A stretch of DNA of 64,000 bases, from assembly GCF_003334255.1 (NCBI RefSeq), contig NZ_QOWU01000016.1; one strand, 5' to 3'. The translations under genes and the position numbers were made by a program. Source of the DNA: Escherichia coli (lineage in GTDB: Bacteria > Pseudomonadota > Gammaproteobacteria > Enterobacterales > Enterobacteriaceae). Below the pieces are notes generated by a model. That model searched no databases, was not told the origin of the DNA, and saw nothing but the letters and a program-made list of their open reading frames with translations. Shown here piece after piece: positions 11,472 through 11,747 of the stretch (the stretch's first letter is position 1; the number at the start of each line of letters is the position of its first letter).

Positions 11472-11747
11472 TCGAGTCGAACCTCCCTGCCCCCGGAGGT
11501 TCTCATCCTCATGAGCTGCAGATGCAAAAAAGCCTGCTCGTTGAGCAGGCTTTTCGAATTTGGTCGGTGATAGAGGATTACTCGCCACTTCGTGGCTCGC
11601 CCTGCGGGCCGTTGCTGGCGCAACGTTCTCTCGCTTCGCTCGAGTCGAACCTCCCTGCCCCCGGAGGTTCTCATCCTCATGAGCTGCAGATGCAAAAAAG
11701 CCTGCTCGTTGAGCAGGCTTTTCGAATTTGGTCGGTGATAGAGGATT
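11472..11747. repeat. Two identical 108-bp direct repeats (11472-11579 and 11640-11747, period 168 bp), each holding a tRNA-Pro 3'-end segment, an intrinsic-terminator hairpin and a gaacctcc/ggaggttc hairpin; copy 2 overlaps the 3' end of proK
   Basis: Read directly: copies match base for base over 108 bp, flanks differ; the ORF track shows the same 56-codon periodicity (repeated [19 protein letters not shown]). Confidence 0.85.
11694..11722 (-). terminator. Intrinsic terminator of proK (aaaagcctgctc-aacg-agcaggctttt plus U-tract); an identical second copy lies at 11526-11554
   Basis: Perfect GC-rich hairpin followed by a T-run on the minus strand, immediately 3' of the tRNA. Confidence 0.7.

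Follow-up and report, generated by a model that had tools for sequence, protein, structure and literature searches.

The window analysed here, a 64,000-nt stretch of Escherichia coli DNA (contig NZ_QOWU01000016.1 of assembly GCF_003334255.1), carried the tRNA-Pro(CGG) gene proK on the minus strand (11729-11805, ARAGORN) with a pair of direct repeats at its 3' end. The gene neighbours of this array were dppA and eptB, both in the window and in E. coli K-12 MG1655, and positions 11350-11850 were identical to MG1655. According to a repeat search of the window, 11472-11579 and 11640-11747 formed a 108-nt direct repeat with 100% identity and a start-to-start distance of 168 nt, and a re-count by script gave 0 mismatches. 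Since the 108-nt copies started 168 nt apart, the spacer between them (11580-11639) was 60 nt long. A perfect 108-nt repeat cannot occur by chance in 64 kb. The features of the interval, read in the direction of proK transcription, were as follows.

11818..11846, minus strand: promoter-like site TTGACG-17-TAAGAT just upstream of proK (consensus match; putative function)
11729..11805, minus strand: proK, tRNA-Pro(CGG) (ARAGORN; Rfam tRNA, 60.7 bits; annotated in MG1655)
11640..11747, minus strand: proximal 108-nt unit (repeat search and reading of the sequence)
11696..11722, minus strand: terminator-like hairpin directly 3' of proK (inverted repeat; the identical copy was folded)
11561..11694, minus strand: RtT element (Rfam RF00391; 'RtT sRNA' of PGAP at the same place in other E. 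coli)
11663..11678, minus strand: antisense copy of the tRNA-Pro T arm (inverted repeats against the T arm, 11741-11757; family comparison)
11645..11654, minus strand: sense T-stem 5' strand plus TTCGA, GGAGGUUCGA, before the RtT core (direct repeat family; alignment A4)
11580..11639, minus strand: 60-nt 'spacer', the conserved RtT core (homologous to four tyrT/tyrV RtT copies)
11472..11579, minus strand: distal 108-nt unit, a curtailed next unit (repeat search; junction seen in alignment A3)
11528..11554, minus strand: second terminator-like hairpin (inverted repeat; fold)
11388..11467, no strand assigned: REP pair (BIME-like) bordering the distal unit (Rfam naRNA4 RF02564, 69 bits on the plus strand and 51 bits on the minus strand)

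A consensus scan found only one promoter-like site between eptB and the repeat, the one at 11818-11846. Elsewhere in the window, further Rfam matches were located at 3249-3314, 9110-9152, 23002-23429, 23711-23817 and 42648-42690; the families were the rdlD antitoxin, ES036 (two copies), the cspA thermoregulator and the sok antitoxin, which are ordinary K-12 features.

The proximal unit consisted of the tRNA 3' 19 nt, a trailer with the terminator-like hairpin, an antisense T-arm-like segment, and the sense half of the T stem followed by TTCGA. It overlapped the last 19 nt of proK (11729-11747), and a second copy of these 19 nt was found in the distal unit at 11561-11579. Each 108-nt unit contained the inverted repeat GAACCTCC/GGAGGTTC and the hairpin GCCTGCUC-AAC-GAGCAGGC followed by U6, with the arms at 11528-11554 and 11696-11722. 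At 11696-11722 the hairpin had a GC-rich 8-bp stem and a 3-nt loop before U6, and the A-run on its other flank made the structure symmetric. The antisense T-arm copy at 11663-11678 read GAGGAUGAGAACCUCC, where an exact antisense would be GAGGAUUCGAACCUCC, and was repeated at 11495-11510; the sense segment GGAGGUUCGA was repeated at 11477-11486. Within the core (11580-11639) we found the hairpins CGUUGC/GCAACG, CCCGCAGGG and GCCAC-GAA-GUGGC, which covaried across 62 family members. The motif GGAUGAGAA was also considered as a hammerhead core and was dropped, as Rfam gave no ribozyme family even at E <= 10. The distal unit stopped 5 nt into the RtT core (..GGAGGTTCGACTCGA), exactly where the REP started.

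The original prediction had described two identical 108-bp units, and pairwise alignment bore this out (108/108, 60 nt apart). It had placed an inverted repeat, a terminator-like hairpin and the tRNA 3' 19 nt in each unit, all of which were seen in both, and had taken the second copy for the real tRNA 3' end, in agreement with the overlap between the ARAGORN call and 11640-11747. Nevertheless, the layout was better put as a tandem repeat with a period of 168 bp and 1.64 units, of which the first began inside the T loop of proK and the last was partial. Since the first unit began in proK and the second ended 5 nt into the core at the REP, two identical 108-nt stretches resulted, and the lone core between them therefore resembled a spacer.

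The spacer had been regarded as unique sequence. This was ruled out by an Rfam match and by alignment to tyrT, both of which identified it as a conserved RtT core. The repeat itself was real, but the repeat family to which it belonged had gone unrecognised. The Rfam family RF00391 (RtT) matched 11561-11694 on the minus strand with 101.3 bits against a gathering threshold of 45 (E = 1.5e-21), covering model positions 1-130 of 130. Three stretches contributed to the match: 55 nt at the distal side of the proximal unit, all 60 nt of the spacer, and the copy of the tRNA end (19 nt) in the distal unit. It lay directly downstream of proK on the same strand, and its 3' end was identical to the last 19 nt of proK (19/19), CCA included. 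RefSeq E. coli genomes annotated by PGAP carried an 'RtT sRNA' at exactly this proK site, and the curated MG1655 record had no annotation between dppA and proK. The sequence labelled in this way by PGAP was identical to the unannotated region at about 3708448-3708581 of MG1655 (NC_000913.3). Our literature search found no report of RtT at proK.

The tyrT/tyrV locus of MG1655 (rttR, b4425; RF00391) gave four RtT matches of 133-137 bits together with a 178-bp repeat. When the proK and tyrT units were aligned, the spacer and the adjacent hairpin segment were homologous, and the tRNA end and the trailer were locus-specific. Both arrays were situated directly downstream of a tRNA on the same strand, consisted of tandem units that were begun by the last 19 nt of the tRNA and shared a homologous core, ended their RtT in a mimic of the tRNA 3' end, and had a copy number above one with a partial last unit (1.64 units at proK). 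RtT elements first became known from the tyrosine tRNA genes; the tyrT array comprises 3.14 units, and its repeat dates from work in 1978-1981. On the other hand, the flanks were copies of tRNA-Pro at proK and of tRNA-Tyr at tyrT, the period was 168 at proK and 178 at tyrT, the linker was 5 nt longer at proK, and only one complete RtT was present there. Moreover, a strong intrinsic-terminator-like hairpin preceded the RtT in the proK trailer and had no counterpart in that of tyrT; termination at tyrT is Rho-dependent.

Two other groups of elements were comparable in part. REP/BIME sequences, one of which adjoined the proK array, are like RtT short, structured, dispersed and strain-variable intergenic repeats. 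In contrast to them, RtT was strictly linked to tRNA genes, oriented with the tRNA, much longer, and had flanks adapted to the neighbouring tRNA. The 3'ETS-leuZ is a small RNA derived from a tRNA spacer, located before the terminator, which acts as an sRNA sponge. Like RtT, it is a discrete RNA that would be excised from a tRNA operon transcript by tRNA-processing enzymes, but the RtT at proK was found after the terminator-like hairpin, was repeated, contained a copy of the tRNA end, and had no known partner.

We concluded that the proK duplication was very probably 1.64 units of an RtT-type tandem repeat with a 168-bp period, kin of the 178-bp repeat at tyrT/tyrV. The anatomy, the homology to the tyrT RtT, the family-wide linkage to tRNA genes, the match of each element to the 3' end of its tRNA and the copy-number steps of 168 bp were all observed directly. 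The proK element is an unremarkable member of a known family and already carries an annotation. According to later papers (PMC4986893, PMC3318445, PMC7542023) and a preprint (bioRxiv 10.1101/2024.07.17.603846), all of which cite Bosl and Kersten 1991, RtT RNA is released from the transcripts of tyrT and other tRNA operons and possibly affects the amino-acid starvation response. A discrete RNA is reported for tyrT (PMC3318445 and PMC4986893, citing Bosl and Kersten 1991); for the proK copy it is a prediction.

The number of units at proK varied among E. coli strains. The spacer was present in 2,669 of 5,426 complete genomes, at 2,957 places and with a maximum of 4 per genome. About half of the 5,426 genomes had no spacer, corresponding to one unit and an interval exactly 168 bp shorter; about 43% had the K-12-like single spacer, and a few percent had more. 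When the two unique flanks were joined as a query, 5,423 genomes matched, and in 4,811 of them the flanks were near enough to form one place. The spans of the alleles, read from an even sample of 60 rows, were distributed as follows.

712-714 bp, 27 genomes: one unit, no RtT annotated
880-882 bp, 20 genomes: K-12 type
about 765 bp, 4 genomes: variant
1050 bp, 2 genomes: three units, two RtT annotations
split flanks, 7 genomes: larger insertion

E. coli genomes had one, two or three units that differed by exact steps of 168 bp, and the suspected variation of copy number in the dppA-proK interval was found across genomes, with 0, 1, 2 or more spacers. The O157 allele had lost precisely 168 bp and kept the REP junction, and STEC316 had three units at proK. 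The one-unit allele was most simply derived from a longer array because the 5' half of the RtT was still there. Both one-unit and two-unit alleles occurred among genomes whose 500 nt of flank were 100% identical to K-12; therefore, copy number altered faster than the flanks mutated. In NZ_CP182371.1 (hit H131), the spacer was matched four times, with only two RtT annotations at its proK.

Sequence identity between units was also variable. Several E. coli strains and E. albertii had 0-5 mismatches between units, and older distal units of some lineages had at least 29. In E. albertii there were two units, 168 bp apart, with 4 mismatches. RtT also followed proK in other enterobacterial genera, including Citrobacter, Enterobacter, Pluralibacter and others. 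The same layout in E. albertii and the RtT after proK in these genera indicated that the architecture of the array was old, while the zero mismatches in K-12 suggested that unequal crossing-over or gene conversion had recently homogenised its units. The original prediction had considered the duplication to be recent or maintained; this has to be qualified, as the homogenisation was recent and the architecture old. In some E. coli lineages, represented by the strains 2017-02-2CC (L006, 250-860) and Br_112_kylling (L129), an older diverged unit stood in the place of the K-12 distal unit and the REP. The terminator-like hairpin of this unit was a different one, its RtT core was shortened, and its tRNA-Pro end was mutated to AATCCTCTGGCACCGACCA.

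To place the proK array within its family, we ran a 19-base core pattern against a single genome of each species, which gave at least 120 loci and at least 149 core matches listed. Among the matches listed, most taxa were Enterobacterales, with some Marinobacterium, Amphritea and Thioalkalivibrio and with chance hits in unrelated GC-rich taxa. The matches listed were located as follows.

at least 92: first units, within 130 nt of the 3' end of a tRNA and on its strand
at least 21: further units of an array, with periods of 143-180
at least 7: too near the edge of the locus to tell
at least 29: no tRNA call upstream

The tRNAs that preceded RtT among the matches listed were Tyr(GTA), Pro(CGG), Pro(TGG), Lys(TTT), Arg(ACG), Arg(CCG) and Gln(TTG). 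Examples of each type, Lys, Arg, Gln and Pro(TGG) included, passed the Rfam threshold for RtT, so the public Rfam family already covers all of these tRNA types. In nearly all listed cases, the last 19 nt of the adjacent tRNA were repeated a few to about 20 nt after the core, mostly with 17-19 of 19 positions matching. The members shared a common plan. Its 5' part was an antisense T arm, often extended into the 3' strand of the acceptor and with the loop changed to ATGAGAA, followed by a short linker; its 3' part ran from the sense T-stem 5' strand plus TTCGA through the core and (N)ATCC to the 3' strands of T stem and acceptor and a final NCCA. The flanks tracked the tRNA even within one type across taxa, as with the Lys versions carrying CCTGC, CCTAT or CCAGT.

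The longest helix between the antisense segment and the adjacent tRNA was used as a metric of this tracking. It worked for Tyr, Lys, Arg(CCG) and Gln but could not set apart Pro or Arg(ACG), since the T stems were alike between tRNAs. It was replaced by pair counts on the alignment. In alignment A4 and at individual loci (L020, L032, L042, L051, L052, L059, L122), the flanks followed the neighbouring T stem and the acceptor 3' strand for seven tRNA types, and the match between antisense segment and tRNA reached up to 13 complementary bases at the tRNA-Gln of Thioalkalivibrio. Such tracking may have come about through gene conversion with compensatory change, through hairpin-templated repair, or through selection on the RNA. 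In Pantoea sp. IMH (L044, 1321-2501), a tRNA-Lys cluster beside a match to the CpoB/ybgF thermometer had at least 7 RtT matches interspersed among its tRNA genes. It follows from this cluster that RtT arrays can occur between tRNA genes and not just after the last one.

The predicted fold of the K-12 proK RtT had a minimum free energy of -52.6 kcal/mol with z = -2.2. On the 62-sequence alignment A4, an Rfam-like fold had 88.7% of cells paired and 17 pairs changed on both sides; 0 of 500 shuffles reached these values, and slid controls had 33-46% of cells paired. An alternative fold, with the T stem closed around the core, scored the same on A4 and was the one preferred by RNAalifold. The pairing of the antisense segment with the 3' end and the T stem around the core therefore fitted the covariation equally well. 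Moreover, as the flanks are copies of tRNA sequence, covariation in them could also result from events in the DNA and need not reflect selection on an RNA. The inner RtT hairpins covaried independently of the tRNA. In the CGNNGC/GCNNCG stem, 4 of 6 pairs were set by the search pattern and the two middle pairs were free; both of these could pair in all 62 sequences and had 7 and 4 two-sided changes. Covariation support for RtT is also found in published work (PMC7657543).

These observations suggest how the array at proK might work. Judging from the allele structures, unequal homologous recombination, replication slippage or gene conversion between the 108-bp repeats would gain and lose units and keep them identical. 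The immediate effect would be two terminators in series, standing between the presumably strong promoter of proK (the promoter-like site at 11846-11818) and dppA. The original prediction had offered a local duplication with tandem terminators as one possibility, which was supported by the exact 168-bp steps and by the terminator-like hairpin in each unit. The hairpin region folded with -18.2 kcal/mol (z = -4.0) and was followed by U6. A consensus terminator scan made 0 calls, probably because the flanking A-run pairs with the T-run. The RtT at proK would be transcribed only by read-through of the first terminator. In that transcript, the antisense segment at the 5' side of the RtT may pair with the tRNA-like 3' end and form a mimic of the acceptor/T helix of tRNA-Pro with a free CCA. 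By analogy with what was reported for tyrT, tRNA-processing enzymes could trim this mimic to a discrete RNA.

An open reading frame of 120 codons (11333-11695, minus strand) crossed both units in the frame that corresponds to tpr, which is annotated as a 'protamine-like protein' within the RtT of tyrT. Judged from sequence comparison, it is most likely a by-product of the repeat; coding was disfavoured by single-base indels among the proK-type cores in A4.

As to the origin of the family, it is possible, though less likely than not, that RtT elements are decayed tandem copies of tRNA genes with the core inserted in the T loop, so that the 108-bp repeat would be a remnant of tRNA plus terminator. 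This is compatible with the RtT reading of the array. In a T-arm-like sequence the core took up exactly the place where TTCGA and (N)ATCC would meet, the 60-nt spacer was about the size of the missing 5' part of the tRNA (58 nt), and in Citrobacter, Kosakonia, Phytobacter and locus L104 a near-complete 5' part of tRNA-Tyr was joined to the core at the T loop. However, the segment 5' of the core was normally an antisense T arm and not a tRNA 5' half, and the fused forms could equally be deletion products of recombination between a tRNA T arm and the sense half of an RtT. In addition, the presence of one core after seven tRNA types requires spread between loci, which decayed tRNAs do not explain. 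The fusions of tRNA-Tyr and core (..AAGGTTCGA|CTCGAGCG..) were seen at L012 (~9240-9420), L022, L070, L080 and L104. They had a tyrT-like leader and an anticodon that was now GCA, and were situated about 63-77 nt upstream of a normal tRNA-Tyr gene. Each may be a deletion product or a relic of the origin of RtT.

Flank copying was observed in both orientations for at least seven tRNA types, with listed hits from Enterobacterales, Oceanospirillales and Chromatiales. It is conceivable, although we consider it unlikely, that RtT represents a tRNA-tracking system in which a core in T-loop context has flanks that copy the tRNA both ways, by active copying or as a selected mimic or decoy, and of which the proK array is one working copy. 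In one variant, copying or recombination would be actively driven at the T loop. In the other, selection would have favoured a mimic of the acceptor/T helix of the neighbouring tRNA that diverts tRNA-binding enzymes, RelA, toxins or tRNA-targeting integrases as a decoy.

A one-off duplication in the K-12 lineage, unrelated to any repeat family and selected for insulating dppA from proK read-through, would account for the two identical terminator-like hairpins in series between proK and dppA and for the zero mismatches between the 108-nt copies. It is very improbable, as the 168-bp layout also occurred in E. albertii and RtT after proK in Citrobacter, Enterobacter, Pluralibacter and others, the spacer belonged to the RtT family by Rfam, and one unit sufficed in about half of the E. 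coli genomes. Insulation of dppA may be a side benefit of the RtT array.

The duplicated tRNA 3' end had also been likened to the attL/attR-like trace of site-specific integration. Resemblances to att duplications were a repeated tRNA 3' segment, begun in the T loop, beside an intact tRNA gene, and single-unit alleles that looked like 'empty sites'; some integrases are known to cross over in the T loop. Unlike in att duplications, identity was not confined to the crossover segment but ran 89 nt past the tRNA end, through the terminator-like hairpin. Moreover, the 60 nt between the copies were a conserved structured core of an RNA family that was found also after Tyr, Lys, Arg and Gln tRNAs, and arrays of at least three units were common. 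The absence of cargo between the copies had been noticed from the start and stood, as only these gene-free 60 nt were present there and the neighbours were dppA and eptB.

In about 612 of the 5,423 genomes the dppA and proK flanks were too distant to join, and two of these split-flank genomes were opened in a search for an integrase or an island at proK. Neither was seen in the two; both had the IS110-family element IS621 between dppA and the array, at the place of the K-12 REP pair (L007, 10622-11602; L008, 10622-11602). IS621 adjoined the distal repeat unit and left the tRNA and RtT intact in both genomes. This element is known to target REP sequences. It was the sole larger insert seen, and no integrase, cargo, or occupied and empty island alleles were found at the loci examined, K-12 included. 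The integration-scar reading was rejected on these grounds and is largely refuted: that a tyrosine-integrase element entered the 3' end of proK and was then nearly all deleted, leaving 60 nt, is extremely unlikely.

With the proK duplication read as an RtT-type tandem array, its practical consequence is a copy-number polymorphism between dppA and proK that changes faster than the flanks mutate and can mislead alignments and assemblies. What keeps the family of interest is the way in which its elements copy the tRNA next to them, and because this match is systematic, the role of RtT becomes approachable.
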